Assembly: GCA_964499695.1 (NCBI GenBank)
Contig: CAZCMD010000001.1
Span: 13,872-77,871 of the forward strand
Reading direction: 5' to 3'
Length of the DNA: 64,000 nt
Source of the DNA: an uncultured Desulfatiglans sp.
Lineage (GTDB): Bacteria; Desulfobacterota; DSM-4660; Desulfatiglandales; HGW-15
This document shows, piece by piece, positions 36,395 through 56,540 of this stretch. The position numbers and the translations under genes were made by a program. Numbering within the stretch: position 1 is the first letter of the stretch; each line of letters begins with the position of its first letter. The notes beneath the pieces are model-generated. The model did no database searches. It was not told the DNA's origin and was given only the letters and a program-made list of their open reading frames with translations.

Positions 36395-38884
36395 TTAGCA
36401 CAACTGGCTTTTGATTTTCTGAAAGATATTTTTTCCTGCAGAACTGTCATTTATATTGGCATGCCTATGATATGCTTTTTGCCTTGACCCATTATCACCA
36501 TTATCGAACATGGCGAAAGCAAGATATTCAAGTAAAGCAGACTTGTCATTTTCATATATAATTGATTCAAAATATTTTTTGCATTTCTGATAAACAATTT
36601 TATTCTTGATAATAAACTCATCATCTTTTTTAATTGTTAGATCAATAGTTTCTACTCCTGTATCCGGCGAATATTTAAACAAAAATGGATAATTTTCAGA
36701 GAAAATGTAAATAAACTGATTATCTGTCCAGGCAAGTTTGACTTTTCCTCCACCCCCCCTATTATCGAGTAAAGCTTTTGACAGATCCGTTACTGTTTGC
36801 AGCTTTCTGGAAATAGGATCAAAACGTAATACCACGTTATGATAATGCGGGAAAAGGAAGATTTCATTTTTATAAATAACTGGTGTTACGAACTGACTTA
36901 AGTTGCCCGAGTCTGCCAGAGGAGATGGTGGAAGAGGGACAGCAGCATATGCTTTTCGTGTTTCTCTATTCCAGCATAGTAAAGAACCAGGACCCTTTGG
37001 AGTAATCCAATTGTTTTTGCCATCGAAACATATCCCTATAAAACCTAATTCAGATTTTGAAATAAAAATGATTTCTGCGGATTTGGATTCCATATCCAAT
37101 ACAAGTAATCTCCCATGAGTTTGAAGCGTTGCAACAGTATATTTTCCACATACATGTACTTGAGCAAAAAAGGGGATGGAATTTGAATCTATTTGCTTGT
37201 CTATACCCTCAATATTACTAAATTCACCTGTTGAGGAGTCATAACAAAGAATATCCGGATACAGCAAGCCAAAAAAGAAGATCATATTATTGTAAGTTGA
37301 ACATTTGGAAAATTTCCAATTCAGACGGTATGATTTTATTTTGGTGAAAAAAGATTTGGGTAACTCAATGCTGGAAAATTCTCCAGTTGCTATTGAATAT
37401 TTTGCAATCGACTTGGCAGACATAGGACAAAAATAGATATCGTCCTTTATTTTAACAGCAAAGCTGAATAGTCTTTTTTGATCAATATCTTCCCCAGGAA
37501 AGCTTCCCATATACTGCGGTTCCAGGGTTTTTTTATCAATCCTGAACAACCCGTTAAAATGATAAGCTGATACCCAATAAGCCCCATCATAATCTATAAA
37601 GCATTCAAAGCAGGCAGTATATTTGTCCATATCATCAAGATGCTCTTGAATGGCATGGTTTTGAATCATGACCGGTTTTCCAGTTAGGCCATACATCATT
37701 AGTAAAGATCCCCCATCCCCATAATAGGCATCAGTCAATGCAATAGCTCTGTGGAGATCAGATGTATCATCATAAATGCCCCAGCCATCGTTTATGTAAT
37801 TCGAAATGATTTGTTTATAGTCGTTTAGCAGTTGTGGCCGCATTGACTTATATGTAGCCTCATTGAGAGGATGAGGGCGCCACCACAAGGCTACATCGTC
37901 TCGGTTTTTAAAGGTTTCAAGAACATGGCGCAGTTTATTCAGATACTGTTCGTTGCCCGCAAGCAACGAACCTATGCTTGTGTTGTAAAAGATAACCTTC
38001 CTGCCATTGATTATCTTATGCCATTCATCAGGAAGATTGCAGTCTTCTTTCTTTGTGTTAATGACTTTGTCGAATTTTGGTGAACCCAGTGCAACAAACT
38101 TATCCTTGGGATTTCCGAATTTATTTCCATAAGCTTTTTTAAAAGCATGTATGTAAGTATTGCGTATTTTCTCGGATTGCACTATTACCGTGTGGGCATA
38201 CACACATCCGGGAAGGGTGCAGAAATGATCCGGCAGAGGAGCATTTTCATCAACCACGAAATATGGGACATAAACAAGCATATCAGTAAGGTTACGCAAC
38301 CGCTCAAAATAGAAATCGGGATGGACTGTAGTCACAAAATTATTTGCATCATAGGGCGCGAAGGATACTATAACATCAGGGTGGCGGGCAGCAATGTCAT
38401 ACGACTCCCAATCTGTGCACTCAATGTTATTTGAATAGCAGTCCGAACCTTCAAAGTGAGGTGTTCCTAATGAACCATCACTGTTCCTTTCAAACCAGGG
38501 AATTGGTATCCAGTAGGGATCACAGTTTGGATCATCTTTGGCTGCAAGATAAATGCTCTCTATACTATCACTCATGCTTGCATTATAAGATAAAAATGCT
38601 ATTTCAATTCTGTCAGGTTTAAGTTCGTCCTTTATACAGTTTTCAATTTTGAACAGATGCTTTATCAAGTCTTTGCTGTCAATTTCTCCGTTGTTTGCTT
38701 TGAATAATGCCTCATAGTAATCTTTCAAGAGCACTGCAGTTTGAGTTCCTTCACCTTTTATGCTTTCGATAAAATCATATATTGCCGATACAGCATCCTG
38801 ACAATCAGCATACAAACCGGATGACTGTGCCTGTTTAGTTTTTTGAAGCAGATCTAAAATTTGCCGCTGTTGATACTTTCGCAT
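36395..38884 (-). CDS. large two-part protein: TagF-like (CDP-glycerol glycerophosphotransferase-family-like) region plus a C-terminal ~7-bladed beta-propeller-like repeat region
   Basis: GSPKFD, VIFYNTS, WWRPHPL and LTDAYYGDGGSL parallel GFPRND, IIWMPTF, IIKPHPV and LITDYSSVAF in the clear TagF-like protein at 49381-50526. The C-terminal half has seven ~45-aa repeats of the type hhhhP...hhhhD..TGE...I. Confidence 0.45.
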   Translation of the reverse strand: MRKYQQRQILDLLQKTKQAQSSGLYADCQDAVSAIYDFIESIKGEGTQTAVLLKDYYEALFKANNGEIDSKDLIKHLFKIENCIKDELKPDRIEIAFLSYNASMSDSIESIYLAAKDDPNCDPYWIPIPWFERNSDGSLGTPHFEGSDCYSNNIECTDWESYDIAARHPDVIVSFAPYDANNFVTTVHPDFYFERLRNLTDMLVYVPYFVVDENAPLPDHFCTLPGCVYAHTVIVQSEKIRNTYIHAFKKAYGNKFGNPKDKFVALGSPKFDKVINTKKEDCNLPDEWHKIINGRKVIFYNTSIGSLLAGNEQYLNKLRHVLETFKNRDDVALWWRPHPLNEATYKSMRPQLLNDYKQIISNYINDGWGIYDDTSDLHRAIALTDAYYGDGGSLLMMYGLTGKPVMIQNHAIQEHLDDMDKYTACFECFIDYDGAYWVSAYHFNGLFRIDKKTLEPQYMGSFPGEDIDQKRLFSFAVKIKDDIYFCPMSAKSIAKYSIATGEFSSIELPKSFFTKIKSYRLNWKFSKCSTYNNMIFFFGLLYPDILCYDSSTGEFSNIEGIDKQIDSNSIPFFAQVHVCGKYTVATLQTHGRLLVLDMESKSAEIIFISKSELGFIGICFDGKNNWITPKGPGSLLCWNRETRKAYAAVPLPPSPLADSGNLSQFVTPVIYKNEIFLFPHYHNVVLRFDPISRKLQTVTDLSKALLDNRGGGGKVKLAWTDNQFIYIFSENYPFLFKYSPDTGVETIDLTIKKDDEFIIKNKIVYQKCKKYFESIIYENDKSALLEYLAFAMFDNGDNGSRQKAYHRHANINDSSAGKNIFQKIKSQLC

Positions 38885-38928
38885 ATTTTGATTCTATCCA
38901 TTTCTCATTTTAATCAGTCACGCTACTG

Positions 38929-39981
38929 CTAGCGATCCTGCCAGTCTGCAAGCATTCTTCGATACATATCACTTAACCCATACTTGTATATCCAACCCAA
39001 TGCCTTTAACTTGTCAATATTAAGTCTGTAACCCGTCTCTGACGCGTAGCCGTATTTATGTGTATCAGTTGCTGCTTTTAAGACAACTTTGATATTTCCA
39101 TCATAAACATCTTTCGCTATAATTTCCGCCATTTCCCGTATTGTTACACTGGCAGACGGGTTGGCTATGTTATAGGCCTCAATGTCCTTGCCCTTAATTA
39201 AAATTGTAAAAAGAGCCCTAACAGAATCTGAAATGTAGCAATAATTACCGCGTGATTTACCTTCTGTATGAAGCTCGATATCTGAACCTGCCAGTACGCT
39301 CCTCGCAAATTGCCCGAATATCCGAGTGTCATCTCTCGGGGTTCCTGCGCCGAAAGTTTGTGCCAACCGGGCAATTTTTACAGGAAGTCCATATTGATTT
39401 GCCCATGCAGTACACAATGCCTCGCATAACCTCTTACTTTCAGGATAACTGCTTCTAGGGTTTGAAAGGTCCAGGTAACCTAGATCACTTTCTGCTACTT
39501 CAGGAAGGTCTGTCTGGCCGTAAACCTCCATAGATGACAGGTACAGGAAACCGCTGCAGTAGTACTTGTGTGCCAGTTCCAGCATATTCCTTGTTCCATC
39601 GACAGATATCGAAATGACATCGGCAGGCCTTGCCACCATATCTGAGGATTTTGTATTCGCTGCACAGTGGAAGATATAATCAATCCGGCTGGGGAATTTG
39701 CTTGTATTTAACGGTTTGCGAATATCGCCAATTACGGTTATTATGCCAAAATCTTTTTCGAGCCTGGCACATTTTTCTATGTCTCGACCATGGGCAATAA
39801 TCAGTAGATTCAGGTTATATTTGGTATTTGCGGAAGCAAGGACATGAACAAGCATTCCGCCTATAAGTCCGGTTGCCCCGGTCACCATGACCGTAGTGCC
39901 ATAGAACTCATTCCAGGAGATGTTAGTATCGGACAATATTTCGTTTATGTCTGCTTTAAGCGTTGGTCCGTTCAAACTCAT
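38929..39981 (-). CDS. NAD-dependent epimerase/dehydratase-family (extended SDR) protein
   Basis: VTGATGLIGG and YPESK (YxxxK). Located 3 nt downstream of the cytidylyltransferase gene. Confidence 0.8.
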   Translation of the reverse strand: MSLNGPTLKADINEILSDTNISWNEFYGTTVMVTGATGLIGGMLVHVLASANTKYNLNLLIIAHGRDIEKCARLEKDFGIITVIGDIRKPLNTSKFPSRIDYIFHCAANTKSSDMVARPADVISISVDGTRNMLELAHKYYCSGFLYLSSMEVYGQTDLPEVAESDLGYLDLSNPRSSYPESKRLCEALCTAWANQYGLPVKIARLAQTFGAGTPRDDTRIFGQFARSVLAGSDIELHTEGKSRGNYCYISDSVRALFTILIKGKDIEAYNIANPSASVTIREMAEIIAKDVYDGNIKVVLKAATDTHKYGYASETGYRLNIDKLKALGWIYKYGLSDMYRRMLADWQDR

Positions 39982-39984
39982 CTG

Positions 39985-40704
39985 CTAACCTAATATCTCA
40001 GCATTTTCTTCGGCATCATAAAGTGCTTTAAAAATATAAAAATCAGAGGGAAGGGTTACCTTTATATTATTGCTGCCACATTCTACTGTGTGGAGTTTAA
40101 CGCCATAATGGAACATCATTGATGCTGTATCAATAAATGATGACTTTCCATCTGTTCTCGCTTTTTCATGATATTTCAGGATTTCATTAAAATAGAATGA
40201 TTGGGGAGCTTTAGCAACTCTCATTGTTTCACGGTTGCCCATGTCGTCAATACAGCTTTTTTTATTGATATGAATAAACGTTTCATGTTCACGGGCAACT
40301 GTAACGCAGTTTCCGTATTGTTTTACCATCTCAATATTTTTTGAAATAAGACTCTTATCAATAAAAGGTCTGACACCGTCATTTATCAATATAATGGAAT
40401 CTCCTGTTGTTCCTGATTCTCTTAATGTGCACAAACCATTATATATGGACTGCTGGCTTGTATCACCCCCGGTTGTCAGCCATTTGACTTTTTCAATCTG
40501 CCAGCGCTTGATTTCCTTTTTCAGTTCTTTTTCCCATCCGGAAATGCACACGACAGCAATTGAATCAATGTCGGGGTGCATTTCAAAACGCTCAAGTGTA
40601 TATATCAATATTGGTTTGCCAGCATATTTTAAAAATTGCTTAGGTAAAGATTTGCTGCTCATACGTATGCCGGTGCCGCCTGCAAAAATAAGAGCAATGT
40701 TCAT
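39985..40704 (-). CDS. IspD/TarI-family cytidylyltransferase (candidate CDP-alditol synthase)
   Basis: MNIALIFAGGTGIRMSS..PKQFL..GKPIL. 239 aa, the length and pattern of TarI/IspD. Confidence 0.75.
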   Translation of the reverse strand: MNIALIFAGGTGIRMSSKSLPKQFLKYAGKPILIYTLERFEMHPDIDSIAVVCISGWEKELKKEIKRWQIEKVKWLTTGGDTSQQSIYNGLCTLRESGTTGDSIILINDGVRPFIDKSLISKNIEMVKQYGNCVTVAREHETFIHINKKSCIDDMGNRETMRVAKAPQSFYFNEILKYHEKARTDGKSSFIDTASMMFHYGVKLHTVECGSNNIKVTLPSDFYIFKALYDAEENAEILG

Positions 40705-43097: not shown

Positions 43098-46000
43098 CTA
43101 TCTCGCTTTTTTTGATAGATATTGGTTCTTGAAGGCTGTCCCTGAAAATCCGGCTGTCATTATCTGGTCTTGAAAAGCCTGCGGAGTGTAATCACTTTGA
43201 AGCAAATGGTTATAAAAGGTAAACAAATCTTTTGTGAAAAAGTCTGTCTGTTCCTTGTTCAATCCACTCCTCTTTACCCAAAGACCTATCATTTGAGCGA
43301 GGCTAGCATTCCATCCGCCCAATGCATTTATCGATATATCGGTAAAGTCTGCTGCCTTCAAATGTCTTTCCAGGGAGAAAGGAGTGTAACGGTATTCATC
43401 GTGGGGGGCATCATGCAAAGGCCAAAGAAACGGGACTGTAAAAAACAACAATCCGCCCGGTTTGAGTACCCTGTTTATTTCTTTTAAGACCGACTCGATA
43501 TCCGGCAGGTGTTCGAATAATTCGGTAGCCATAACAGTATCGACAGTATTGTCATCGAGCGGGATCTTTCTGCCATCCCAGAACATATCAGGCTTGCCGT
43601 TTTGCTGGTAGGTTGGGTTTTCGATATCCAGGCCGATATATTTTTCAACCTTGCTGTTGGATAAAATATATTGTTTATAGGGCATTTCACCGCAACCGAG
43701 ATCAAGCAAAGTGCCTTTAAAAATGTTAAGCTTTTCATCAATGGATTTTTTTATTGAAGATCTCATATAATATAGATCCATGTTTTCCGGTGTAAGGGGG
43801 ATGTTGATAAAATTATTTTGACGTGTAGAGTTAGATAAATTCTCCGAAATTCTTTTTTCTACCCAATTAATTGCTACTTTCGTTCTTTTGAGATTCTTAT
43901 ATTTATCGTTTATCTCTATCAATGACTGTTGAGCTTCCAGTACGCCGAGTAATGATAGTTTAAGAATAGCCCTTGCACATTCGAGTTCAACAAGATCACC
44001 TTTCTCAAGAAATTTCTCATATCTATTGATAGCACTATCCATCAAGCTTAGTTTTTCTTGAGCAGAAAGGCTCGAAATAATATTGTGCCTAATCTTAGAA
44101 TATGGAATTTTCTTTTTAAGTATAAAAACCACGGAGTTGTTAGGTACATAAATAATAGGTTCGAAATATTCTGAGAAAAATTCCATTGTGATTGCCAACC
44201 AAGGGCATGTCGGATGAATAAAATCCTGTTGAATGATAATTGAATGATTAGGTATCAAATTCGGAAAAAACTCACGTACAATAAAGTCATTTATCTCCCA
44301 AGACTTGGAAACGTCAATAAACAGCAATTCAATTGCTGTTTTATCCCAGGGGAAAGAGGTTATGTCCCCTTCATGAATATCCAAAATGTTTTTAATCTCA
44401 AATGTGTTCTGATCAAAGATTGATCTTATAGAATCTCCTGGTGAGTAGTCTCCATATTTTTTCAGATACTTATCAGATTGATGCTTATCAGCTATAAATA
44501 AATCATATGAATGAATAACTTTAAATTTTGATTCATTGATTTTGTTCTCCGATACCCCCATAGCCAGTGAAAGCGTAGAGCCACCTAAAAAACATCCGGC
44601 ATCAATAATAGCGCCAACACCTTTCCAATATTCTTTACCAAGCATATAAAGGAGTTGACGTTCCTCAACTGATAACATTGTTGTAATCAACTTAATTTTC
44701 TCCGGAAGTATAATCCTACGCCAATCAGAACTTATACCATCTAACGCTGCCGGATATTCATGTTTTTTCTTGTTTTTAAAAGAAGTTTTTTTATGCAATG
44801 GTATCCTTTTATCTTCTCGTGCAATACCATTATCAGTGATTTTAATTTGTGGTAGATTCATTGAATCTGATGCTGGGATCTTTATCTCACTTTTAATGGA
44901 TGTTCTCAGGACCATTTTTTTAATGAAATCAGCCCATCTGTCAGCACATACTTTAATCGTGTATTCCTTTTCAACTGTTTTACGCGCGGCTTTTGATAGT
45001 CTTCGCCAGAGACCTTTTTCATTTTGTAATCTTACTATAGTATTAAGGAAGTCTTCTTCACGATTGTCAACAAGCAGACCGTTCTCGTCGTGTTTAATAA
45101 TTTCAGTTGCACCACTCTTGGTTTTTGTGCAGACAGGTACCAATCCGCATCCCATGGCTTCCATTAATGAAATAGACATACCTTCATAGTCTGACAGCAA
45201 AACAAATACATGGTTCTGAAGCAATGCGGGAAAGATTTCATCAACTGCCAACAATCCACCATATCTAAGCCTGTTACCAAATTGCGCAGTATTTATAGCC
45301 TCAATAGCATTTCCCTGCTCCCTGTCCTCGCCATAAAGAGTTGCACTGGTGCCGGGGATTTTATCAAGTACCTTCTTTAATGATTCTATAACATCGAAGA
45401 TTCTCTTTTGACGCTGTATTAATCTCCCGGTATATACAAGATTTAATTCTCTGCCCGGTTTATCGACTGTTTTATCCGGCAGACTAATACCATAAGGACA
45501 TTTAAGCATTTCTACATCGGGGACATTTTGAGCTTCTACAAGACCTTTAATATATTCGGATACACATACAATTCCGGACAGGCGATAATCCATATCTCCT
45601 GAAACAAAATATTCAATCAGCTCATGATGAAAATTATCATCCGAGTGCAAAATGCCGACTGTCGGGATGCCTGCTTCTTTTATCCACCGTGACGCAAAAT
45701 ATGCGGGCACACTTAAATTGGGGACAAAAAGATCCGGCGGATCAGGTTTTAAGATATTTAATAATTGCAGAATATTCTGCTCAGTATATTGCTGTCGAGG
45801 CACAACGATGCAGGGTATGCCGTTCCGTTGGAGATTACGGAGAACCGTACATTCAGAATCTGCATTCATTAAGAAAATTACTTCCGGTTTTATCCCGCGA
45901 GCAGCCAATTCCGGTAAAATGCGCTGAAGCCAGATATTAGGGCCATTGATCTGATTCGGCCCATATGCTACGAACGTAACCTTTAACGGGGCTTTATGAT

Positions 46001-46946
46001 TAACCTCTATTTGAGCTTTTTTATCAGCAAAGTATTCAGGTATTAAGTTGAACAGTTTAAGCCTGTCATTTTTCTCAATAGATGATAGATTGTTGATATT
46101 GTCCAGATGATGAATAAGCATCTTCTTTATATCATCTCCATATTTACCGTTAAAGTGTTCGAGTATTCTCAGGTACATAAAGATTCTTCCGGCATGTATA
46201 TAATCTCCTTTATGATTTACAGTTATGCCACCTGAATGTTTTCTATATACTGCCCAATTCTCATCAAAATATTTAATTTTCTTATCACCACAAATAAGCA
46301 TAACAAGGGCCATATCCCTGCTTGGAACTTTAAAATACCAATCAGGTATATTAAGATTTTCAGGTCTCTTACAAACTATACTGACCGTGGGGCAAAGCGG
46401 TGAAGAAATTAAATCAGACATTGTGTAAACATCTCTATTCCTGTCAATCCCATTCCATGGGAAATCAGAATATAAAAGACCTTCTTTATTCGGATTATCA
46501 AACTCGACAACCGTGTTATGAAAAGAGATAACATAATCTGGGTTGGCTTCCAAAAAATCCACCTGCTTTTGCAGTTTATGAGGGTCTGTCCAATAGTCAT
46601 CCCCCTCGCATAAGGCACTGTATTTACCTTTTGTCCTGTCTCGCTGGATTCGCCCGATTGTACCATCTTTTTTTTGAAACTGGTTTTCTGTCTGATAGAT
46701 CGGCTTTATCAGGTTGGGATATCTTGCTTCGTATTCCCGGATAATATCGGCTGTCCTATCAGTTGACGCATCATCATGAATAAGTATCTCAAATGGAAAA
46801 TCTGTTTCCTGGATCAAAAAGCCCTCAAGCGCATCTTCAATATACTTTTCGTGATTATAACTCATGCATTTGATACTTACTATTGGTTTGGCAGCCTCAC
46901 CTTTCCAACTTTTCATTATCTCTTGTTCTGACCGTAATATTCTCAA
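43098..46946 (-). CDS. 1282-aa multidomain enzyme: GT2, GT4, methyltransferase-like domain, and a class I SAM methyltransferase
   Basis: GT2 (VSIKCMSYNHEKYI, IHDDASTDRT, CEGDDYW; ~46200-46890). GT-B (EGMSISLMEAMGCGLVPV; ~44930-45990). IIDAGCFLGGST region (~44155-44710). LLDLGCGEMP...ELFEHLPD...LKPGGLLFFTVPF (~43345-43765). The track start is a TTG; an ATG at 46916 is an alternative. Confidence 0.8.
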   Translation of the reverse strand: MRILRSEQEIMKSWKGEAAKPIVSIKCMSYNHEKYIEDALEGFLIQETDFPFEILIHDDASTDRTADIIREYEARYPNLIKPIYQTENQFQKKDGTIGRIQRDRTKGKYSALCEGDDYWTDPHKLQKQVDFLEANPDYVISFHNTVVEFDNPNKEGLLYSDFPWNGIDRNRDVYTMSDLISSPLCPTVSIVCKRPENLNIPDWYFKVPSRDMALVMLICGDKKIKYFDENWAVYRKHSGGITVNHKGDYIHAGRIFMYLRILEHFNGKYGDDIKKMLIHHLDNINNLSSIEKNDRLKLFNLIPEYFADKKAQIEVNHKAPLKVTFVAYGPNQINGPNIWLQRILPELAARGIKPEVIFLMNADSECTVLRNLQRNGIPCIVVPRQQYTEQNILQLLNILKPDPPDLFVPNLSVPAYFASRWIKEAGIPTVGILHSDDNFHHELIEYFVSGDMDYRLSGIVCVSEYIKGLVEAQNVPDVEMLKCPYGISLPDKTVDKPGRELNLVYTGRLIQRQKRIFDVIESLKKVLDKIPGTSATLYGEDREQGNAIEAINTAQFGNRLRYGGLLAVDEIFPALLQNHVFVLLSDYEGMSISLMEAMGCGLVPVCTKTKSGATEIIKHDENGLLVDNREEDFLNTIVRLQNEKGLWRRLSKAARKTVEKEYTIKVCADRWADFIKKMVLRTSIKSEIKIPASDSMNLPQIKITDNGIAREDKRIPLHKKTSFKNKKKHEYPAALDGISSDWRRIILPEKIKLITTMLSVEERQLLYMLGKEYWKGVGAIIDAGCFLGGSTLSLAMGVSENKINESKFKVIHSYDLFIADKHQSDKYLKKYGDYSPGDSIRSIFDQNTFEIKNILDIHEGDITSFPWDKTAIELLFIDVSKSWEINDFIVREFFPNLIPNHSIIIQQDFIHPTCPWLAITMEFFSEYFEPIIYVPNNSVVFILKKKIPYSKIRHNIISSLSAQEKLSLMDSAINRYEKFLEKGDLVELECARAILKLSLLGVLEAQQSLIEINDKYKNLKRTKVAINWVEKRISENLSNSTRQNNFINIPLTPENMDLYYMRSSIKKSIDEKLNIFKGTLLDLGCGEMPYKQYILSNSKVEKYIGLDIENPTYQQNGKPDMFWDGRKIPLDDNTVDTVMATELFEHLPDIESVLKEINRVLKPGGLLFFTVPFLWPLHDAPHDEYRYTPFSLERHLKAADFTDISINALGGWNASLAQMIGLWVKRSGLNKEQTDFFTKDLFTFYNHLLQSDYTPQAFQDQIMTAGFSGTAFKNQYLSKKAR

Positions 46947-47015: not shown

Positions 47016-47747
47016 TTACTCTATAATATCAATAAGCTTTAGCCGCCGCGAAATCTCAGCGATTTCATCTATCGTGTTTTCCCCTATATCTTCAGAGAGG
47101 AGAATAGCATTCTCCTTCAGTATATTTACCGGCCAGTCCCACCATTTTGATGAGTCGATCCTTCTTTCGGTTTCATCATTGAAGCGCATTTTCAGCTTTT
47201 TAGCCGGTGCACCTGCAACCACGGAATAAGCCGGAACATTTTTTGTAACAACGGATCCAGCCCCTATTACAGCGCCGTTGCCAACAGACACACCCGCCAA
47301 TATGATAGCACCGGCCCCAATCCAAACCCCATTACCTATGATCGTGCGATCCCGCGGAGGGGATGGTATGTCAATCCCAAATTTTTCCTTCCAGTTGATG
47401 CCGGTCTGCATGCTTACACTGCGCATATTGTGATTAACCGCCCCAATGCTGACATTCCATGACAAAGAACACATCCGCCCGATTTGTGAATGTATAACTC
47501 GAGTATTCTTGTTTGTTGAAGAACCAAGACCGATTTCTGAAAATGAAATTAAACAATCCATATCTATACGATTGTGTCCTTCGAGTTTTGAATAGGCAAT
47601 ACGGGACCTGTCACATAATTTCGCGTCATTGCCGATTTCCGAACATGTTATATATATATCATTATATATGATGACATCCTGGCCTACAGTAGTGTCTTTA
47701 ACAACAGTATTTCTACCAATGTCTAAATTATTTTTTAAATTATTCAC
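47016..47747 (-). CDS. hexapeptide-repeat (LbH) acetyltransferase
   Basis: [50 protein letters not shown] start overlapping the upstream stop (GTGA). Confidence 0.8.
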
Positions 47748-49384
47748 TGTACCGGCATCCTTTCAGAGTTCATTTCTCTAACTCCAAAAATTATATCAAG
47801 CACCACGATCCATTCTTCAGCTCTTTTAAAGTTATCATCCCTCCAGGAAATTGCGCCAAAAATCATCGACACAATGTCAATAAATACGGCGTCGTCAAGC
47901 ATTGAGCGGTCCGCATGCATGCCAAAAAAATCTTTCAATTCCTCAAAATAATCCTTTCTGTTACCGCCGAAGTGCAAGAGTTCATATGCAATAAAGCGGG
48001 AGAACTCCATTACAAACGGGGCGTAATATCCCAAGGGATCTATAAGTTTAATATCATCGTTTTCAATCAGGGCATTGTTCCCTGATATATCGCCATGGAT
48101 GAGAAATCTTTCAGACGGCAGTCCGCGATACTTCAAGAGTGCGCTCTCAAGGAGTTGCCTGCAAAATGCTTTTTTATATCCTACTGTAAGAGCCATACGG
48201 TATTTATCCTCCAACTCGACAACATAATCCTGAATGCAGGTATCAATACCGCCTTCCGGGGCCATCTTCATAGAGGAACAGATTCGCCTAAATAGACCTT
48301 CCAGCAAGTAGCGGTGTTTTGAAAAAGCCGTATAGTCACCTGGTATAATTCTTTTAAGCAACATGGCATAACGTTCATCGTCGCTGTCTATAAGCTTCGC
48401 TGTAATATCAGATGATAGGGTTTCTAAAGTGAACTTTTCCCGTTCATATCGTCCAGTGAATGGAGGTATTACCTTAATAATAACCGCACCAAATCTTTCA
48501 GAAGATGCCTCAAAAACCAGCCCAAAATTCGATGCCGGGTGAAGCGTGTAGTCGGTTATATCCCATTTTGCCAACAAATATTCCACATCAGCATCCAATG
48601 TCCTAGCCCACTCCCGAACTTCCTTACGCCATACTATGCGCAACCTCTGAAAAAGGTCTAAAGCAACATCATTGCTATGAGCTCTGAACTGACGCTTTTT
48701 TTCACGATGGGCCAGTAACGCTTCTACAATCGCAATATCATGGGGGTATATTATCTTAATGTAGTCAGTAAAATCCCAATAAAGCTTTGTTTTGACATTT
48801 GAAGGCAGTTGGTGCGCAATGACAGTCAAAAGTGAATTTTCATTAAAATGTTTCACCAGCATGTCGAAGTGATATCCGTGTGGATTTTGTATCATGTAGT
48901 ACCTTGAACGGTCCACGCTGGGCGTGTCATAGCACCCGAGACTGGTTGGGATTTTTGATGTGGTTAGCACTACGTCATATCGGTCCAAATACTCAAAAAA
49001 CTTATCAAACAACGCGCCGGTAACCAATGGATTGACTGCATCTGTCACAACTAGCTTATCGCAATCGTAATGATTTCCAATGTAATGAAGGACTTTATTG
49101 AAAGACTTATTCCTTTCCTCACCGCCCTCAATAATCACGATGCCATATGTATGTCGGAGTTTATTTATATAATCCCCTCTGGCTGCTACGATAATCTCAT
49201 CAGCTTTGCGTGATGCAAGGGCAGCACGGATCGTGTATTCAATTACCGGCCTACCGTTGACCAAGTGATACTGCTTTGGAACTGGATCACCGAACCTGTT
49301 GCCTACACCGCTTGCAAGTATCACAATCAAGTTATTTTTCATGGATGCTATACCCTGCCTTCTTAAATTATGTTGACCTGTCAC
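47744..49384 (-). CDS. bifunctional IspD-like cytidylyltransferase plus APH/choline-kinase-like phosphotransferase
   Basis: N-terminal [18 protein letters not shown]...GRPVI. C-terminal [23 protein letters not shown] (HGDxxxxN kinase loop). The start is either the GTG at 49384 (GTGA overlap) or the ATG at 49342. Confidence 0.7.
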
Positions 49385-50526
49385 AAATCAAGAATATCCA
49401 GGAGCCTTGCGGAATTCCGATTATCTTGATAGGTGTGAATGTAGTTTTTTAGTTTTGCCCTTTGGTCAGCAAAAATGTCATTTCCATTTGCCACATCGCT
49501 CATGAATTCGATTAAATCCTTTGTGGACCAAATTTTCTTTCCGGGCATATAGTCTAAAGGGTTTTCAACAATAAAACCGGGCGTATATTCATTAAAATCA
49601 TCTAATGTGTAACCGATCGGCCTGTCGAGGAGGAGATAATCGAAAGCGACAGAGGAGTAATCAGTTATCAAAGCATCTGTTTCGGCCATTAATTGATATA
49701 GGTTGATTCCTCGTTTGCGCAGTATTTCATTTGACATCAGGAGGATATTTTCTGACTGAACGATGGTGATGGCAGAAAGGTCTTGAACCGGGTGCGGTTT
49801 AATGATCAATAAAATGTCCTTCTGACTAAGACAGTCATCTAACAGTTCTAAGTCTCCTGCAGTACTCAGCACAGGAAGTCCCAAAGCATTTCCTTTCCCC
49901 GAATCATTACAGTCTATGTAACGGTGTTTTCTGAAAGTTGGCATCCATATAATAGTTATTGTATGCTGTCTTCCGCATGTTATTTTTGCTAGTTGTCCGT
50001 TGGGGGAAAACAGATCGTCATTGCGCGGAAAACCACAGACAAAGTACTTTGACGGATTAACACCAAACCTTTCCGAGGATCCGGCAATCAGATTTTTAGA
50101 GGTGCATAGAAAACGGTCGACATTTTCATCGTAATCACTGAGATACTTTGTAGCATTTTTTAGCCCAAAAGCACCATGAGTAAGGAAGATGCCAATTTGG
50201 CTTTTTTTTCTCTTTCCTATGACCATACCGTCGGCGATCAAATATCTTGCCCTTGTCAGCAAAATTAGATCAGCTATGGTTTTGTGGCTTCTTCGGCTTC
50301 TATCCATGACGGTGACATTAGATACGTTGATGTTTTGCCACTCTAGAACGTCACGAACAAGCCACACCAGTCTGTATTTTTTGTTAAGACCCCGACGCAG
50401 CATCTCTCTATAAAGAGCGCCAGTATTACTGTCAAAATCATCTTCACTTTCAAGGATGATAATATTTCCAAGTGGCAGATATTTTAACAAATTATCAAGG
50501 CAAAATATTTTATTCATTATAGTCAT
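49381..50526 (-). CDS. CDP-glycerol glycerophosphotransferase (TagB/TagF) family protein
   Basis: CGFPRNDDL, IIWMPTFR, IIKPHPV and LITDYSSVAFDYLLLDRP. Confidence 0.8.
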   Translation of the reverse strand: MTIMNKIFCLDNLLKYLPLGNIIILESEDDFDSNTGALYREMLRRGLNKKYRLVWLVRDVLEWQNINVSNVTVMDRSRRSHKTIADLILLTRARYLIADGMVIGKRKKSQIGIFLTHGAFGLKNATKYLSDYDENVDRFLCTSKNLIAGSSERFGVNPSKYFVCGFPRNDDLFSPNGQLAKITCGRQHTITIIWMPTFRKHRYIDCNDSGKGNALGLPVLSTAGDLELLDDCLSQKDILLIIKPHPVQDLSAITIVQSENILLMSNEILRKRGINLYQLMAETDALITDYSSVAFDYLLLDRPIGYTLDDFNEYTPGFIVENPLDYMPGKKIWSTKDLIEFMSDVANGNDIFADQRAKLKNYIHTYQDNRNSARLLDILDL

Positions 50527-50571
50527 TCGTAAATTCGTTTGGTGCGTATTATATTGTCTTTGTTCACTGTC

Positions 50572-51915
50572 TCATGACCGAAGGATCTTAGCTAAATCAA
50601 AGGCGAGTTCCACCGCCTGTTCAGCATTCAGACGGGGGTCGCAGTTCGTCTGGTAATTAAGATACAGATCCTTATCGATAAGTTGTCGATTGCCGCCGAT
50701 ACATTCCGTAACATTGTCGCCTGTCAGCTCAAGATGAACACCGCCTCCAACTGTTTGCTCAGCCTGGTGGATCTGCCAGAACATTTTGATTTCCCCAAGT
50801 ATGTCTTCGTATTTTCTGGTCTTATGCGAAAGTCCATTGGTGTATGTGTTTCCGTGCATGGGATCACAGATCCATAGAACCCTGAATCCCTCTTTTTTAA
50901 ATTCCCGAAGCAGAGGTGGAAGAAATGATTCGATTTTTGTCGAACCGAAGCGTGTAATAAGCGTTAGACGTCCTACATCATTATCAGGGTTAAGCAATTG
51001 TATGAGACGTTTTATTTCGTCGATATTGTGATCCGGCCCGATTTTTACGCCGATGGGATTACCGACGCCTCTTAAAAATTCCACATGAGCCCCTTCAAGC
51101 TGGCGTGTCCGATCACCGATCCATACCATATGGGCGCTTGTGTCGTACCATTTGCCTGTAGTCGTATCGATTCTTGTCAGGGCCTCTTCGTATTCAAGCA
51201 GAAGGGCTTCATGAGAGGTGTACACCGTGATTTCGTTTAACTGGGGGGCCTTGATATCTATACCAATCGCGGTCATAAAGTTCGCGGCCTTTCTGATCCC
51301 GTTAACAAGCTCATCATATTTCTGGTTGGCAGGGAAGGAACCGAAACTGGCCTCGCTCCATGATTGAATTTTATCCAGCGCGGCGTAGCCGCCTCGGGTA
51401 AATGCCCTTACGAGATTAAGGGTTGCGGTGGACCGGAAATATCCCTCCAGTATCCTGCGAGGATCAGGTGTTCTCGCCTCCGGTGTCGGATCAGGGCTGT
51501 TAATCATATCTCCCCGATAACTGGGAATCTCGATGCCATCGACCGTTTCAGTGGTGGAAGAACGGGGTTTGGCATATTGCCCTGCCATTCTGCCGATTTT
51601 TATAATTTTCTTCTCTCCAGCGTAGGCAAGGATTATGGACATCTTAAGTATGACCTTCAGGAGATCATGGATACGCGGGCCGTTGCAACGTGAGAAATTT
51701 TCGGCGCAATCTCCAGCCTGAAGGACAAATGCCTTGCCTTCGATTACCTCAGCAAGCTGCTGCTTCAACGCTCGTGTTTCTCCGGCGAAGACCAGCGCAG
51801 GCAACTGAGAGAGCTTTTGCAGCATATCTTCGCAAACACGGGCATCAGGCCAGTTCGGCTGTTGTCGTATTGGAAAAGAACGCCAGCTTGATTTCGACCA
51901 TTCAGGAGTTCTCAT
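50572..51915 (-). CDS. class II 3-deoxy-7-phosphoheptulonate (DAHP) synthase
   Basis: Collinear by eye with M. tuberculosis/plant-type DAHPS: QQPNWPD, LQAGDCAE, GRMAGQYAKPRS, SYRGDMIN, WIGDRTRQ, CDPMHGN, CDPRLN. Confidence 0.9.
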   Translation of the reverse strand: MRTPEWSKSSWRSFPIRQQPNWPDARVCEDMLQKLSQLPALVFAGETRALKQQLAEVIEGKAFVLQAGDCAENFSRCNGPRIHDLLKVILKMSIILAYAGEKKIIKIGRMAGQYAKPRSSTTETVDGIEIPSYRGDMINSPDPTPEARTPDPRRILEGYFRSTATLNLVRAFTRGGYAALDKIQSWSEASFGSFPANQKYDELVNGIRKAANFMTAIGIDIKAPQLNEITVYTSHEALLLEYEEALTRIDTTTGKWYDTSAHMVWIGDRTRQLEGAHVEFLRGVGNPIGVKIGPDHNIDEIKRLIQLLNPDNDVGRLTLITRFGSTKIESFLPPLLREFKKEGFRVLWICDPMHGNTYTNGLSHKTRKYEDILGEIKMFWQIHQAEQTVGGGVHLELTGDNVTECIGGNRQLIDKDLYLNYQTNCDPRLNAEQAVELAFDLAKILRS

Positions 51916-51937
51916 GTTATATCCTTAACTACCCGAT

Positions 51938-53083
51938 CTAATTATAAACAGGCTGCCAGGTCATGGTATCTTTTGATTTGACCATGGATTCAATCATATG
52001 AATTCCTTCTAGCGCCAGTTCGATCCCAAACACATTTTCAGAGTGCCAATGCCCGGTTGCCCTGTACTGACAGAGACAATCGGCAATATCCATATAAAGA
52101 TTGGCAAATGCCTCTATAAAACCGGCAGGGTGCCCGGCCTTAAACCTGTTATACCGTCTCATATTTGCAACCTCCACATAAGAGGCTCTATCCATAATTA
52201 CCCTGCGCCCATCAGCGTATGATACTAGCAGTTCCTCAGGACGCATCTGATACCATTCAGCAGAGGCTTCTGAGCCATATATCCTGAGTCTTAATCCGTT
52301 TCTTTGACCCAACGCTGACTTGCTGAACCATATCTGGCCCTGAATGCCTTCCGAATAGCGACAAAGACATGTGACGTTATCAATAACCTGTGAAAACCAT
52401 CCGTAACTGTTCTGATCGGCAATAACCTCAAGGGGTTTTTGTCCCACCAGATAGTGAATCAGCTGATGAAGATGAGACCCCAGGTCAAGGTGAATCACGG
52501 GTACATGTCCGTCGGTAAGCCTCCATGACTGGGGCGCCGGCTTATTCCCATGTGCATCCACCCTGATATAGCCTTCCTGAGGCATTTCAGCCTGAAAGTG
52601 CAGTATCCTGCCAAGCATACCCTTTTGGATCATTTTTTTCAGTTCACGCACCATCGGGTACCCCGAGTAATTATAGGTCACTGCAAGGAAACTATTTCTT
52701 TGACTGCAAAGGTCCAGGACTGTTTTGGCATCGGCGCTGTTTGTAACCAGGGTTTTCTCACAGATTACCGGGTAACCCGCCTCCAGACAGGTCATGACAA
52801 TCTCATAATGGGATGGGGTCGGTGTCAGAATGGTGATAGCATCCAGACGGCCTTTTTCTTTTTTCAACAGTTCCTGCCAGTTGTCATATGCCCTGTCAGA
52901 GGCTACCCCGTAAGCCTGTGCTGTCTCAAGATTCCGCTTTTCATCTGTACTGAAACAACCGGCCTTGACAGCCCAGCGATTATCCATGGTAGAGGATACG
53001 GCATGTGCATATCCAACCGCGGAATATAAAGAACCACCTATAAAACCTAGTGACATTGGTGAGGACACTGTCGGCTTATCCAT
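51938..53083 (-). CDS. Gfo/Idh/MocA-family NAD(P)-dependent oxidoreductase
   Basis: LGFIGGS...ILTPTPSHYEIVMTCLEAGYPVICEKTL. GGGAG RBS. Confidence 0.8.
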   Translation of the reverse strand: MDKPTVSSPMSLGFIGGSLYSAVGYAHAVSSTMDNRWAVKAGCFSTDEKRNLETAQAYGVASDRAYDNWQELLKKEKGRLDAITILTPTPSHYEIVMTCLEAGYPVICEKTLVTNSADAKTVLDLCSQRNSFLAVTYNYSGYPMVRELKKMIQKGMLGRILHFQAEMPQEGYIRVDAHGNKPAPQSWRLTDGHVPVIHLDLGSHLHQLIHYLVGQKPLEVIADQNSYGWFSQVIDNVTCLCRYSEGIQGQIWFSKSALGQRNGLRLRIYGSEASAEWYQMRPEELLVSYADGRRVIMDRASYVEVANMRRYNRFKAGHPAGFIEAFANLYMDIADCLCQYRATGHWHSENVFGIELALEGIHMIESMVKSKDTMTWQPVYN

Positions 53084-53101
53084 TATAATCTCCCTTTAAT
53101 T

Positions 53102-54262
53102 TCATTGAGTTTGGTTAATCGTATACAGGTTTCTGTTGAGAGTCTTTTTGTATAAATCCAGTAGCTCTTTCTCTGAATTATTCCTTGAAAACAATAACGC
53201 AATCCTGCTAAAAGGACTGGCTTTAATCATATCGCCCGCTAAGCTTATGGGGACCATCTTTTCTATCAGAATTGGAAAATGGAACTGGATTGATCCCAAA
53301 ACACCTTCAACAGGCTGAGAAATGGTATGCCTCATTATCCAGGCTTGCTTCATAGTTACTTTTTCAAATGTGAAATTTTGTTTTACAAAGGATCTGGCAT
53401 ATGTTTCTGCATAGCTAAATCCGGTTGAGAGTTCGATCAATTGACTGTACAGATCGCCGGGACAGCGTCTTGTCACCTCAATCAACCAGAATGATTCCCC
53501 GTTTTTTATGAATTGCGTGTGGACAAGCCCATCAACCATCTTCAACTCTTTTGAAAGTAAGGTAATACTTTTTCGTATGCGATTCAGCATTTCGGAAGGA
53601 AAGTCATAAATCACACGACTGGTGTCAACCACAAATGGGTTTGCCGTACTGTTCTCTTCGACAATAAAGTCTGCTACTATTCTGCCGCTGGTAATAAACG
53701 CTGAATGGCTGTATAGCTGACCTTCAACATATTCTTCGATTATGCATGTCTTTAAACGGGAGAATTCCTTTGCACGGTTGATGGCTGATTGCAGAGCCCG
53801 TTTTTCCGGCCTTTTAAGGACAGTCATGCCGTGACCGCTGTAAGCATCAATAGGCTTGACAATCAAAGGCCTCATTTCGTCCGAATGCTCGCCCGAGATT
53901 AGAGCCGGAACCGGAAGGCCGATCTGTTTTGCGAATCTTCGAAATTTATCTTTTTTATTGATAATGTCGGTTGTCTCCGGTGTATCCAGGCCATGATAGC
54001 TCCCTTTTGAGTTAAGCTCTGCGCACACCTGGTATGAACGGTCATTACACCCGGGGACGATGTAATCAATATTTAATTTTGCTATCAATTCTTCGGTTTG
54101 TTTAACATCGGAATAATCCATATTGATATAATTTCTGACTGATTTAGCCAGAAAATCCTTTGGGTTTCCGCCAATAACAAAGACCTCGAAACCGGACTTG
54201 ATCAAATAATTATAGATCGGCGCTGATGAAAAATTGGTGTCAACTAAAAGTACTTTATTCAT
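53102..54262 (-). CDS. ATP-grasp domain protein
   Basis: NKKDKFRRFAKQIGLPVP...LIVKPIDAYSGHGMTVL...IIEEYVEG... pattern of ATP-grasp ligases. Confidence 0.7.
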   Translation of the reverse strand: MNKVLLVDTNFSSAPIYNYLIKSGFEVFVIGGNPKDFLAKSVRNYINMDYSDVKQTEELIAKLNIDYIVPGCNDRSYQVCAELNSKGSYHGLDTPETTDIINKKDKFRRFAKQIGLPVPALISGEHSDEMRPLIVKPIDAYSGHGMTVLKRPEKRALQSAINRAKEFSRLKTCIIEEYVEGQLYSHSAFITSGRIVADFIVEENSTANPFVVDTSRVIYDFPSEMLNRIRKSITLLSKELKMVDGLVHTQFIKNGESFWLIEVTRRCPGDLYSQLIELSTGFSYAETYARSFVKQNFTFEKVTMKQAWIMRHTISQPVEGVLGSIQFHFPILIEKMVPISLAGDMIKASPFSRIALLFSRNNSEKELLDLYKKTLNRNLYTINQTQ

Positions 54263-54298
54263 TATTTGTACTCACCGGGGTGTTTGAATTTAAGAAAA

Positions 54299-55372
54299 TT
54301 ATTGAGCTTTCGCATACAATACCGTCTCTTCATAATGCTTTGTAAAGTGATCTAAATAAAATTTATATCCAAGATTTAAGTTGTTTATCAAGTGAACTAT
54401 GTTAGCAAAATCATTCATGTTATGATAAATGGAGATGGCTAGCTCCGGTTTAAATCTTCTCAATGTTTGTTCGGCGCCTCTCAGTGCATTTTGTTCCGCC
54501 CCTTCTATATCCATTTTTATAAGGTCAATTTTGGCTAATTGCTCCTGATCAACGAAATCGTCTATGGTTATCGTATATATGTTATTCTCGTGTCCTTCAA
54601 ACGGTGTTAACGACACCTTACTGCCTGGACCATTATCCCGATAAAACATCCTGATACCTGATTTATCCCATAACGGATTTTCAACTATTTTTATTATATT
54701 TTTAAAATGAGGATTAAGATTAATATTTTTGTAAGCTACCTGTAGATTATTCGGAATAAACTCAAAGGAATATACTTTTCCATTCCCTTTTACCTTATTA
54801 GCAAAAAATAATGTTGTATCGCCCCAACAGGCTCCACAATCTATAACAATATTGCCGTTCTTCGCACCAATGATTATTTGATCATCCGTTATATATTCAT
54901 AGGGCTTCAGTAAAAATTGACTGAATATGGTTCCAGGCGCAGTATATAGCTTAACCGGCAAATCAAGAGGCGACAAGTCCGCGAAAAAAAGATTTTTTTT
55001 CATGGAGCTTACATAATTAACTTCTACCTTATCTTCGGGATCTATCAATGATGACAACTCATCAATTTTTTTAGAATAATCCGTTGCCGAAAGGGGCAGT
55101 CGTATTTTCCTATGACCAAGAACCCTGAATGCGAGTAAATGGAGCAGGAGCTTTTTTGATCGAAAATCATCGAGGAGATAAAAAAAGGATTCAAACTCAT
55201 CCAGGAAATTTTCTATTTCAAAAAGATTTTCCTGCCCATCAACTATTTCTCTTTCCGGTTCCCCGAATCTGGAAAAAGAAAAATTATCTTTAAAATTATT
55301 TTTCCAGGCTTTAGCAAGGGTCTGTAAAAATGCATGGAAGAAGAAATTGTCTTTAGTATCGCCATCTGCCAT
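54299..55372 (-). CDS. FkbM-family methyltransferase
   Basis: VIDCGACWGDTTLFFA...SFEFIPNN...IKMDIEGAEQNALRGAEQTLRRFKPELAISIYHN. Confidence 0.8.
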   Translation of the reverse strand: MADGDTKDNFFFHAFLQTLAKAWKNNFKDNFSFSRFGEPEREIVDGQENLFEIENFLDEFESFFYLLDDFRSKKLLLHLLAFRVLGHRKIRLPLSATDYSKKIDELSSLIDPEDKVEVNYVSSMKKNLFFADLSPLDLPVKLYTAPGTIFSQFLLKPYEYITDDQIIIGAKNGNIVIDCGACWGDTTLFFANKVKGNGKVYSFEFIPNNLQVAYKNINLNPHFKNIIKIVENPLWDKSGIRMFYRDNGPGSKVSLTPFEGHENNIYTITIDDFVDQEQLAKIDLIKMDIEGAEQNALRGAEQTLRRFKPELAISIYHNMNDFANIVHLINNLNLGYKFYLDHFTKHYEETVLYAKAQ

Positions 55373-55373
55373 T

Positions 55374-56540
55374 TTATTCTTCTCCAGCGATTATATTTAG
55401 GATTCTTTTTATGTCTGATTTGTCGATCTCAGGATAAATCGGCAGACAGAGAATTTTCTCGGTAACGGTTTCCGCTACGTGCAGAATGCCGGGTTGTGCC
55501 GATTCAAGGCCCCTGTATGTTGGGAACTGGCTTATAAGAGGATAAAAATACCGTCTTGAAAAGATGTTCTGTTTCTTTAATGCGTTATAAATATCATCCC
55601 TTGATTTTCCGAAGGTGTTTTCATCAATTACGATCGGGAAATACTGATAATTATGCCTTACTTCAGGAATGTCTTCAAAGAATGAAATTCCGGGCAGGTC
55701 TCTGAGGCGCTTACTGTAATATTCCGCTATCTCTTTTCTTTTCTGAATGGACTGGTCAATATATTTTAATTGTAGTATGCCCAAGGCGGCCTGGAACTCA
55801 TTCATCTTTGCGTTTATTCCGGGTGCTACTACAGTAGTCTCGCCGGCAAAGCCGAAGTTCTTTAAAAAATCTATCCTTTTTTTCGTTGTCTCGTCATGGC
55901 AGATTATTGCGCCTCCCTCGAAGGTCGTGAATACCTTTGTCGCGTGAAAGCTTAAAACTGAAAGGTCGCCGAAATTTAAAACTGAGTTGCCGTTAATAGT
56001 TACACCAAAGGCATGGCAGGCGTCATAGATAACCTTTAAACCATAAGTCCCGGCTATCTCCTGGATAGCCTCAACATGACACGGATTACCATATACATGA
56101 ACGGGAAGGATAGCTGTTGTTTTAGGGGTAATAGCCGCCTCGATCTTTTTGGGGTCCAGATTGTATGTCACAGGGTCAATATCACAGAACACCGGTTTGA
56201 TGCCGTTCCAGTTAAGGGCATGGGTTGTGGCTACAAAACTAAAAGGGGTTGTTATGACTTCACCAGTTATTCTAAGTGTCTGAAGAGCGCTTATAAGTGC
56301 CAGTGTGCCATTGGAGAAAAGACAGACATATTTAACTCCAAGATATTCAGCCAGTTCTTTTTCAAAACGCTCATGATATGGGCCCTTATTGGTGAGTTGT
56401 TTTGATTCCCAGATTTGTTCAAGGTACTCATAAAATTCTTCAAGCGGTGGAAGAAAAGGTCTAGTAACATATATCGGTTCTTTATTATCAATATTATCTG
56501 CAATCACATCATCTGATATTTGTGGTGTATTCGTTGTCAT
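55374..56540 (-). CDS. DegT/DnrJ/EryC1-family sugar aminotransferase
   Basis: FSNGTLALISAL...PFSFVATTHA...SFHATKVFTTFEGGAI (PLP-lysine). Confidence 0.88.
   Translation of the reverse strand: MTTNTPQISDDVIADNIDNKEPIYVTRPFLPPLEEFYEYLEQIWESKQLTNKGPYHERFEKELAEYLGVKYVCLFSNGTLALISALQTLRITGEVITTPFSFVATTHALNWNGIKPVFCDIDPVTYNLDPKKIEAAITPKTTAILPVHVYGNPCHVEAIQEIAGTYGLKVIYDACHAFGVTINGNSVLNFGDLSVLSFHATKVFTTFEGGAIICHDETTKKRIDFLKNFGFAGETTVVAPGINAKMNEFQAALGILQLKYIDQSIQKRKEIAEYYSKRLRDLPGISFFEDIPEVRHNYQYFPIVIDENTFGKSRDDIYNALKKQNIFSRRYFYPLISQFPTYRGLESAQPGILHVAETVTEKILCLPIYPEIDKSDIKRILNIIAGEE

Follow-up and report, generated by a model that had tools for sequence, protein, structure and literature searches.

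Phosphodiester-linked decoration with phosphocholine, ribitol-phosphate, glycerol-phosphate or phospho-N-methylthreonine shapes antigenicity, motility and host recognition. The locus described here is a trio of genes – encoding a TagF-like phosphotransferase, a fusion of a cytidylyltransferase to a kinase, and a hexapeptide-repeat acetyltransferase – that lies in a 64,000-nucleotide stretch (the window) of an uncultured Desulfatiglans sp. (assembly GCA_964499695.1, contig CAZCMD010000001.1, positions 13,872 to 77,871). Its closest characterised analogues are FtaABCD of Clostridioides difficile, LicA/LicC/LicD, and Gtp1-3/WchX of pneumococci. An earlier reading of the sequence (the original prediction) held the trio to be a translationally coupled, self-contained module that phosphorylates a small alcohol (X), activates it as a cytidine diphosphate (CDP) conjugate and transfers it. 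All three of the predicted open reading frames (ORFs) are present on the minus strand, and Pfam and NCBIfam matches (PF04464, IspD PF01128 and Hexapep) agree with the domains originally assigned to them. We consider it likely that the trio is a sub-operon that adds phosphodiester-linked X to a glycan by way of a kinase, CDP-activation and transfer. What is new here is a rare fusion protein that would supply the donor for a phosphotransferase of a familiar kind; the strategy itself is already known.

In C. difficile the TagF-like protein FtaD moves phospho-N-methylthreonine from CDP-N-methylthreonine to the GlcNAc on flagellin (bioRxiv 10.64898/2026.02.12.704994; PMC10714395), FtaC having methylated CDP-threonine before transfer (bioRxiv 10.64898/2026.02.12.704994). 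As published, that flagellin locus encodes, besides the TagF-like FtaD, a nucleotidyltransferase, a methyltransferase and a ThrH-like phosphotransferase; it has no ATP-grasp protein, although the original prediction named one (bioRxiv 10.64898/2026.02.12.704994). The trio resembles FtaABCD (CD0241-CD0244) and PA1088-PA1091 of Pseudomonas aeruginosa in being a gene set by a flagellin gene, with a predicted path from phospho-alcohol to CDP-conjugate to TagF-like transfer as a phosphodiester (PMC11833859), and in a predicted optional tailoring of the CDP-conjugate. The enzymes differ from those of FtaABCD. In that system a ThrH-like phosphoserine:threonine phosphotransferase provides the phosphate, whereas here an APH-fold kinase would do so (no ThrH-like gene was found among the window ORFs scanned); there the nucleotidyltransferase is GDP-mannose-pyrophosphorylase-like (NTP_transferase-type), here it is IspD-like; there the phosphate and nucleotidyl steps reside in separate proteins, here they are fused; and there the tailoring enzyme is a methyltransferase, here an acetyltransferase. 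What the two systems share is confined to the TagF-like component and the location, and for FtaD the likeness rests on its published description.

The LicA/LicC/LicD route likewise places a kinase, a cytidylyltransferase and a CDP-alcohol phosphotransferase in sequence, and most homologues of the fusion are in fact paired with LicD; in the window, however, the kinase is outside the Choline_kinase family, the cytidylyltransferase is IspD-type, the transferase is TagF-like and there is no choline permease. A fused LicCA with the same domain order as the window's fusion occurs in Treponema. In the pneumococcal CDP-2-glycerol pathway (Gtp1-Gtp3 plus WchX) a TagF-like glycerol-phosphotransferase receives its donor from a kinase and a cytidylyltransferase dedicated to that purpose, again in a glycan locus (PMC1391919), but these are separate proteins and include a reductase, Gtp1 (Gtp2 and Gtp3 were compared by description). 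In systems that employ CDP-ribitol – TarI/TarJ with TarL, Bcs1, and mammalian ISPD with FKTN/FKRP – the cytidylyltransferase fold and the kinds of transferase are the same as here (PMC4873967; PMC8587909), whereas the phospho-alcohol is supplied by a reductase and not a kinase, and the fusion has other residues in place of the Arg of DAxRP and of the QTPQ motif. For the Gtp1-Gtp3/WchX pathway, the enzymology is used in these comparisons as general background.

The fusion and its phosphotransferase partners

Among 5.8 billion proteins, full-length homologues of the fusion form 26 clusters (516-553 aa); the fusion also occurs in six GTDB species representatives and in seven metagenome loci. Carriers with a name belong to Oscillospiraceae, Lachnospiraceae, Hungatella and Anaerovoracaceae, and one is a Synergistaceae metagenome-assembled genome (MAG). 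Some 20 distinct loci were inspected by means of precomputed Pfam calls and tblastn searches with TagF-like, LicD and other queries. A gene for a CDP-alcohol phosphotransferase adjoins the fusion in ~20 of these ~20 loci, usually directly upstream. The partner is TagF-like in the window, in L010 (an 87%-identical relative), in L002/L015 (where the two genes overlap by 4 nt), in L034 and in L020; it is LicD in L004, L035, L006, L008, L013, L016-L019, L036-L040 and L033. The pairing is invariant across phyla and involves two unrelated phosphotransferase families; it supports a chain leading from kinase to cytidylyltransferase to phosphotransfer, and it is the strongest support for CDP-X being made by the fusion and used by the phosphotransferase. 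The non-chance signal is the conserved gene neighbourhood and not the overlaps between genes: 4-nt overlaps are ordinary elsewhere in the array, so that an overlap alone is weak evidence.

The core of the original prediction – phosphorylate, CDP-activate, transfer – is supported by the domains, the catalytic residues and the adjacent phosphotransferase genes, while its claims about coupling, the kinase subfamily, the acetyltransferase and the gene content of the C. difficile locus required correction.

Identity across fusion loci is 44-71% in the cytidylyltransferase half and 30-42% in the kinase half. The fusion is common to an environmental flagellin island and to capsule/cell-wall loci of gut Oscillospiraceae, Lachnospiraceae and Hungatella; the family, uncharacterised and rare, provides a compact sequence marker for phosphodiester decoration. 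Some of the loci have additional features. In several Firmicute loci, L033 (1294..3583), L016 (684..3451) and L017-L019, the fusion is directly followed by a second, stand-alone IspD-like gene with a TarI-type VRP motif, sometimes with a CysE/EpsC-like acetyltransferase between the two. In an Anaerovoracaceae MAG (L020, 8910..12542) the neighbours of a distant fusion homologue are a GT2-TagF-like fusion, a sugar-type periplasmic binding protein (Peripla_BP_4) and, on the opposite strand, an HTH-IspD-like fusion, a setting that hints at uptake-coupled activation of the alcohol.

Domains, catalytic residues and proposed steps

Each chemical step of the mechanism outlined below is inferred, on the basis of domain identities, catalytic residues and gene neighbourhoods. 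The C-terminal half of the fusion would act first, phosphorylating free X with ATP. An AlphaFold model of this domain on the family alignment has a predicted local distance difference test (pLDDT) of 90.9 and a predicted TM-score (pTM) of 0.89, and Foldseek matches it (probability 1.0, 11-16% identity) to APH(4)-Ia, LicA, amicoumacin kinase, methylthioribose (MTR) kinase, APH(2''), macrolide kinase and homoserine kinase. As modelled, the domain is a bilobal protein-kinase-like (PKL) APH fold. A profile of the 26 homologues finds MTR kinase (2olc, E 2.4e-5), together with Rio2 and fructosamine-3-kinase, around the catalytic loop. The motif HGDISGNN, from which a kinase was originally predicted, corresponds to residues 430-437 and falls inside that loop. 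Absence of catalytic residues had been named beforehand as a test of the kinase; the set is complete, consisting of K304 (beta3), E316 (alphaC), H430-x-D432, N437 and D449 (the Mg-binding Asp), and an alignment of 63 relatives shows no variation at K, N and D, with E, H and D conserved in at least 90%.

The affiliation of the kinase by sequence is a separate matter. When 1.84 billion representatives were searched exhaustively with phmmer, only 227 relatives of the domain came up at E<=1e-3, and a Pfam scan of the 63 relatives gave APH_6_hur in 31, APH in 26 and Choline_kinase in one (E 0.0095). Judged by these matches the domain leans to APH(6)/APH, not to choline kinase; the description "APH/choline-kinase-like" is right at the level of fold.

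The N-terminal half would then join X-phosphate to CTP, as its family does, yielding CDP-X and pyrophosphate. Residues 20-224 match IspD PF01128 with 70 bits (cut-off 27, E 3e-19); the best solved sequence match is Bacillus subtilis TarI 4jis (E 1.4e-15 with the sequence by itself, 5.9e-25 by family profile); and by Foldseek the fold agrees with IspD/TarI at target-normalised TM-scores of 0.75-0.83. Invariant across the 26 homologues are the GxGNRFG P-loop (G26, G28, R30), PKQ (K37), R159 and KxxxPxD (K210, P214, D216). The domain was rejected as a true IspD or TarI orthologue: it scores 88.1 bits against TIGR00453 (the IspD equivalog, cut-off 181.3) and 69.6 bits against NF001183 (TarI, cut-off 166), far below both thresholds, and it has DAVNP in place of DAxRP and QNPH (in QNPHGY) in place of QTPQ. 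Across the fusion family the two motifs read DAV(N/C)P and Q(N/S)P(H/Q/D); TarI 4jis has HDSVRP aligned with the first. The Arg of D-A/S-x-R-P and the residues of Q-T-P-Q we take to be the polyol contacts in IspD/TarI structures; since these motifs are replaced, the substrate of the fusion is probably neither methylerythritol phosphate (MEP) nor ribitol-5-phosphate. Orthology to LicA or LicC was rejected as well, the cytidylyltransferase being IspD-type and not LicC-type. Nor is the fusion an IspD/IspE-type isoprenoid enzyme, an outcome that the original prediction had named as one that would refute it: the C-terminal domain has the APH fold whereas IspE has the GHMP fold (Pfam finds no GHMP-fold kinase in the fusion), and the N-terminal domain is below the IspD and TarI cut-offs.

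In the third step the TagF-family GT-B enzyme would move X-phosphate from CDP-X to a sugar hydroxyl, with release of CMP, as its family and conserved adjacency to the fusion suggest. The protein matches PF04464 (Glyphos_transf) with 142.9 bits (cut-off 22.1, E 1.6e-41) over profile positions 14-364 of 367, and the solved structure nearest to it is that of TarL, a ribitol-phosphate polymerase (8va1, E 9e-8, residues 16-376). Orthology to TarF, TarL or TarB was rejected on NCBIfam equivalog scores (44.2 vs 550, 40.4 vs 1000 and 26 vs 500 bits, respectively). The catalytic histidine pair of TagF is, we assume, H444/H584; the window protein has THG at about residue 116 and KPHP at about residue 245, and the one full-length alignment, with TarL, puts no His at the first site in TarL. 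The window protein has 1454 homologues at E<=1e-10, and those from other lineages do not exceed 44% identity. The genes beside the nearest of them differ in kind (L031 has an NTP-transferase/aminotransferase fusion, L032 a TagD-Gfo fusion) and were uninformative about the donor. The closest homologues outside the lineage (P0034, at L031 8001..9887, and P0036) carry a fused N-terminal Gly_transf_sug/Caps_synth glycosyltransferase domain, the same layout as the glycosyltransferase-plus-phosphotransferase fusion reported for P. aeruginosa PA1091. In L032 a TagF-like homologue has beside it a protein (10241..11545) that combines a TagD-like cytidylyltransferase with a Gfo/Idh/MocA oxidoreductase – another unusual CDP-alcohol-forming fusion.

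The acetyltransferase would provide the weakest of the steps, acetylating either a neighbouring sugar or X itself, the latter while still in CDP-X or once transferred; by analogy with FtaC, it may act on CDP-X. The protein contains hexapeptide repeats (PF00132, Pfam), and its best curated match is the phosphonate-associated hexapeptide transferase TIGR03308 (123.1 bits, cut-off 201.65, E 1.3e-35); scores against Vat (101.9 vs 300 bits) and CatB (90 vs 350 bits) are also below their cut-offs. It aligns with VatD 1khr (E 1.8e-24), including the NH residues of the catalytic loop, and also matches CatB and the aminocyclitol acetyltransferase ApmA. The gene is coupled to the fusion here and in L010, and absent from most fusion loci. 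As a conserved member of the module it was rejected, most loci having no acetyltransferase and the enzymes of L016 and L033 belonging to another subfamily and not being orthologous; from the comparison of sequences it is treated as an optional, lineage-specific accessory.

The identity of X and competing explanations

A number of observations weigh against the three-step mechanism. No Pfam family matches the kinase domain significantly, the best being RIO1 (E 0.016). The full-length model of the fusion has a pLDDT of 86.2 and a pTM of 0.66, which leaves the inter-domain geometry uncertain, and Foldseek found no solved structure spanning both domains. HGN replaces HGD in three family members (P0023, P0024 and P0026), two of which also have INP for IDP; judging from these substitutions, the kinase in members of this type may be dispensable or inactive, the cytidylyltransferase motifs being intact. 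Stand-alone relatives of the cytidylyltransferase adjoin LicD in loci without the kinase. In L016 and L033 a hexapeptide acetyltransferase does come right after the kinase, but it is CysE/EpsC/WcaB-like and not of the XAT class. That the flagellin glycan is the acceptor is presumed from the location of the genes, and a literature search found no report of an activity for the fusion family.

As to X itself, a small polyol is our tentative first choice. The characterised IspD-fold enzymes matched by the N-terminal domain all act on polyol or ketose phosphates, and in L020 the fusion has a sugar-type binding protein beside it. Next comes an amino alcohol or hydroxy-amino acid, which is possible, if doubtful; it has in its favour the FtaD precedent, the phosphonate-associated relatives of the acetyltransferase, and the acidic residue in the QSPDAY of most members. 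Choline and alcohols of any other kind follow, both being unlikely. If X is choline, glycerol or ribitol, then the locus is an ordinary re-wiring of a known pathway. The fusion might instead make an undescribed CDP donor – none of CDP-choline, -ethanolamine, -glycerol, -ribitol or -threonine – whose alcohol might be, for example, an amino alcohol, polyol or cyclitol that can be N- or O-acetylated; we regard this as a distinct but unlikely outcome. Were it true, a new phospho-substituent and a new enzyme family would be at hand, installed by TagF-like and LicD proteins on flagellin glycans and on the cell-wall polysaccharides of gut Firmicutes.

Choline deserves separate consideration because the fusion would then be a LicA/LicC analogue and the glycan would receive phosphocholine, a special case of the mechanism proposed above. 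LicA gives the best TM-scores of the kinase model among solved structures (0.64/0.70, rmsd 3.9 for the pneumococcal enzyme), the prevalence of LicD partners fits, and in L006/L007 a protein with choline-binding repeats is flanked by the fusion and two LicD genes, although such repeats are not choline-specific. However, the kinase domain has no match at E<=10 to Choline_kinase PF01633 (nor to APH PF01636 or APH_6_hur PF04655), and its 63 relatives include a single Choline_kinase hit; the cytidylyltransferase is IspD-type, a LicB-like permease was not found in any locus examined, and phosphocholine offers the coupled acetyltransferase nothing to acetylate. We hold choline to be improbable. A rather different possibility is sugar salvage: the kinase would generate a sugar-1-phosphate and the N-terminal domain a CDP-sugar, destined for a glycosyltransferase and not for the TagF-like enzyme, after the logic of FKP or AmgK-MurU. 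Fusions with an N-terminal nucleotidyltransferase and a C-terminal kinase do serve salvage, as in Bacteroides FKP, and NahK and AmgK are APH-fold anomeric kinases; L020 has its sugar-type periplasmic binding protein, and L004 has SIS/CBS, HAD and RbsD-type sugar genes. Yet the strict adjacency is to TagF-like or LicD genes, not to any particular glycosyltransferase family, and the characterised IspD/TarI-fold enzymes that were matched use primary phospho-alcohols, not anomeric phosphates, all of which makes salvage quite improbable.

The kinase may, alternatively, not feed the cytidylyltransferase at all: X-phosphate would come from central metabolism, and the kinase would either act elsewhere (on the acceptor sugar, in the manner of POMK) or be a pseudokinase with a structural or regulatory role. 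The HGN and INP substitutions and the cytidylyltransferases found beside LicD without a kinase would fit such an arrangement, as would L033, in which the N-terminal domain of the fusion has decayed to a 34-aa remnant and the kinase gene is retained alongside the second IspD-like gene. Against it, the catalytic residues are all conserved in the window and in most members; the order of the fused domains is conserved across phyla, of which consecutive steps are the simplest explanation; and the kinase half, though less conserved than the cytidylyltransferase half, is clearly constrained. We give this arrangement little credence. Least probable is that X derives from the neighbouring cassette as a cyclitol or heptulosonate, formed from 3-deoxy-D-arabino-heptulosonate 7-phosphate (DAHP) or dehydroquinate and phosphorylated by an aminocyclitol-kinase-like domain. 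A DAHP synthase gene does lie directly upstream of the trio both here and in L010, where AroB is added, and the APH(6)-type relatives of the kinase and the ApmA-like character of the acetyltransferase are in keeping with such a substrate; but the cassette is intact without the fusion in Flavobacteriaceae polysaccharide loci, its ATP-grasp family is large (1826 matches at E<=1e-20, with members 56-80% identical), and some 18 fusion loci have no DAHP synthase, the cytidylyltransferase domains of those loci being 62-71% identical to that of the window.

Gene junctions and the surrounding island

Two GTGA start/stop overlaps had been claimed within the trio, and one of them stands. At the junction between fusion and acetyltransferase the overlap is real, with GAAAGGA ahead of the GTG start; it is kept in L010, and public gene calls have the 4-nt overlap in use. 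The GTGA between the TagF-like gene and the fusion is present as sequence, but its GTG is almost certainly not the start codon. A start at GTG 49384 was ruled out on four grounds: all 25 of 25 fusion homologues start at a Met matching residue 15 (ATG 49342); the exact 532-aa product is found in public gene calls; in L010 the TagF-like stop at this junction is TAA and the GTG is absent; and residues 1-13 have a pLDDT below 50 in the full-length model. A 38-nt spacer thus separates the two genes (Table 1).

Table 1. Positions of the trio, its junctions and neighbouring features in the window.
Feature	Position	Strand	Remarks
TagF-like gene	49381..50526	-	381 aa, ATG start
Spacer, TagF-like stop to fusion ATG	49343..49380	-	38 nt, purine-rich, Shine-Dalgarno-like AAGAAGGCAGGG
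Fusion ORF, longest form	47744..49384	-	546 aa counted from GTG
Fusion coding sequence, cytidylyltransferase + kinase	47744..49342	-	532 aa from conserved ATG, stop included
Cytidylyltransferase domain, IspD/TarI-like, putative CTP:phospho-alcohol	48680..49342	-	residues 15-235 of the 546-aa ORF
APH-fold small-molecule kinase domain (predicted)	47747..48679	-	residues 236-546 of the 546-aa ORF
GTGA start/stop overlap, fusion/acetyltransferase	47744..47747	-	TGA stop 47744-47746, GTG start 47747-47745
XAT-class hexapeptide-repeat acetyltransferase gene	47016..47747	-	243 aa, GTG start
Cassette: DegT aminotransferase, class II DAHP synthase, Gfo/Idh/MocA oxidoreductase, ATP-grasp ligase	50572..56540		directly upstream of the trio
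TarI-type cytidylyltransferase gene	39985..40704		163.4 vs 166 bits, ribitol-5-phosphate cytidylyltransferase model
SDR after the TarI-type gene	38929..39981		Bcs1-like reductase-plus-cytidylyltransferase logic
829-aa protein	36395..38884		sub-threshold Glyphos_transf match (E 8.5e-4), long uncharacterised C-terminal half
GT2-TPR protein	28062..29948		immediately upstream of the flagellin gene
Flagellin gene	26994..27752	-	conserved flagellin N- and C-termini in translation
fliD	24442..26733		close to the flagellin gene

The trio lies inside a tightly spaced, co-directional array on the minus strand that spans ~57203 down to 28062 and ends just upstream of the flagellin gene and fliD, with chemotaxis genes, rmlA and rmlB further on. 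Judged by its position, the array is a flagellin glycosylation island. A scan of the array for promoter and terminator motifs found no excess over shuffled sequence. Directly downstream of the trio (43098..46946) is the gene for a 1282-aa protein with GT2, GT4/GT1 and C-terminal S-adenosylmethionine (SAM)-dependent methyltransferase domains, a candidate glycan builder that may be the source of the acceptor. Further along, at 36395..40704, is a second and orthodox CDP-alditol module, consisting of a TarI-type cytidylyltransferase, an SDR and the 829-aa protein.

The cassette on the other side of the trio is a separate, widespread unit, conserved across phyla in glycan loci. It recurs in L010 (1..5445), there alongside a bona fide AroB, as well as in a Flavobacteriaceae O-antigen/capsular-polysaccharide-like locus (L049, 5661..10537) near rmlA/rmlB-type genes. 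Its class II DAHP synthase scores 618 bits, just above the equivalog cut-off of 614.7. A literature search for DAHP synthase in flagellin glycosylation, or for the cassette, found nothing; the gene content suggests N-acylation of a 4-amino-4,6-dideoxyhexose with an acid derived from DAHP or dehydroquinate. The GC content at 50001..54000 (DAHP synthase and oxidoreductase) is 0.45, against 0.35-0.39 in most of the island, which is consistent with separate acquisition of the cassette.

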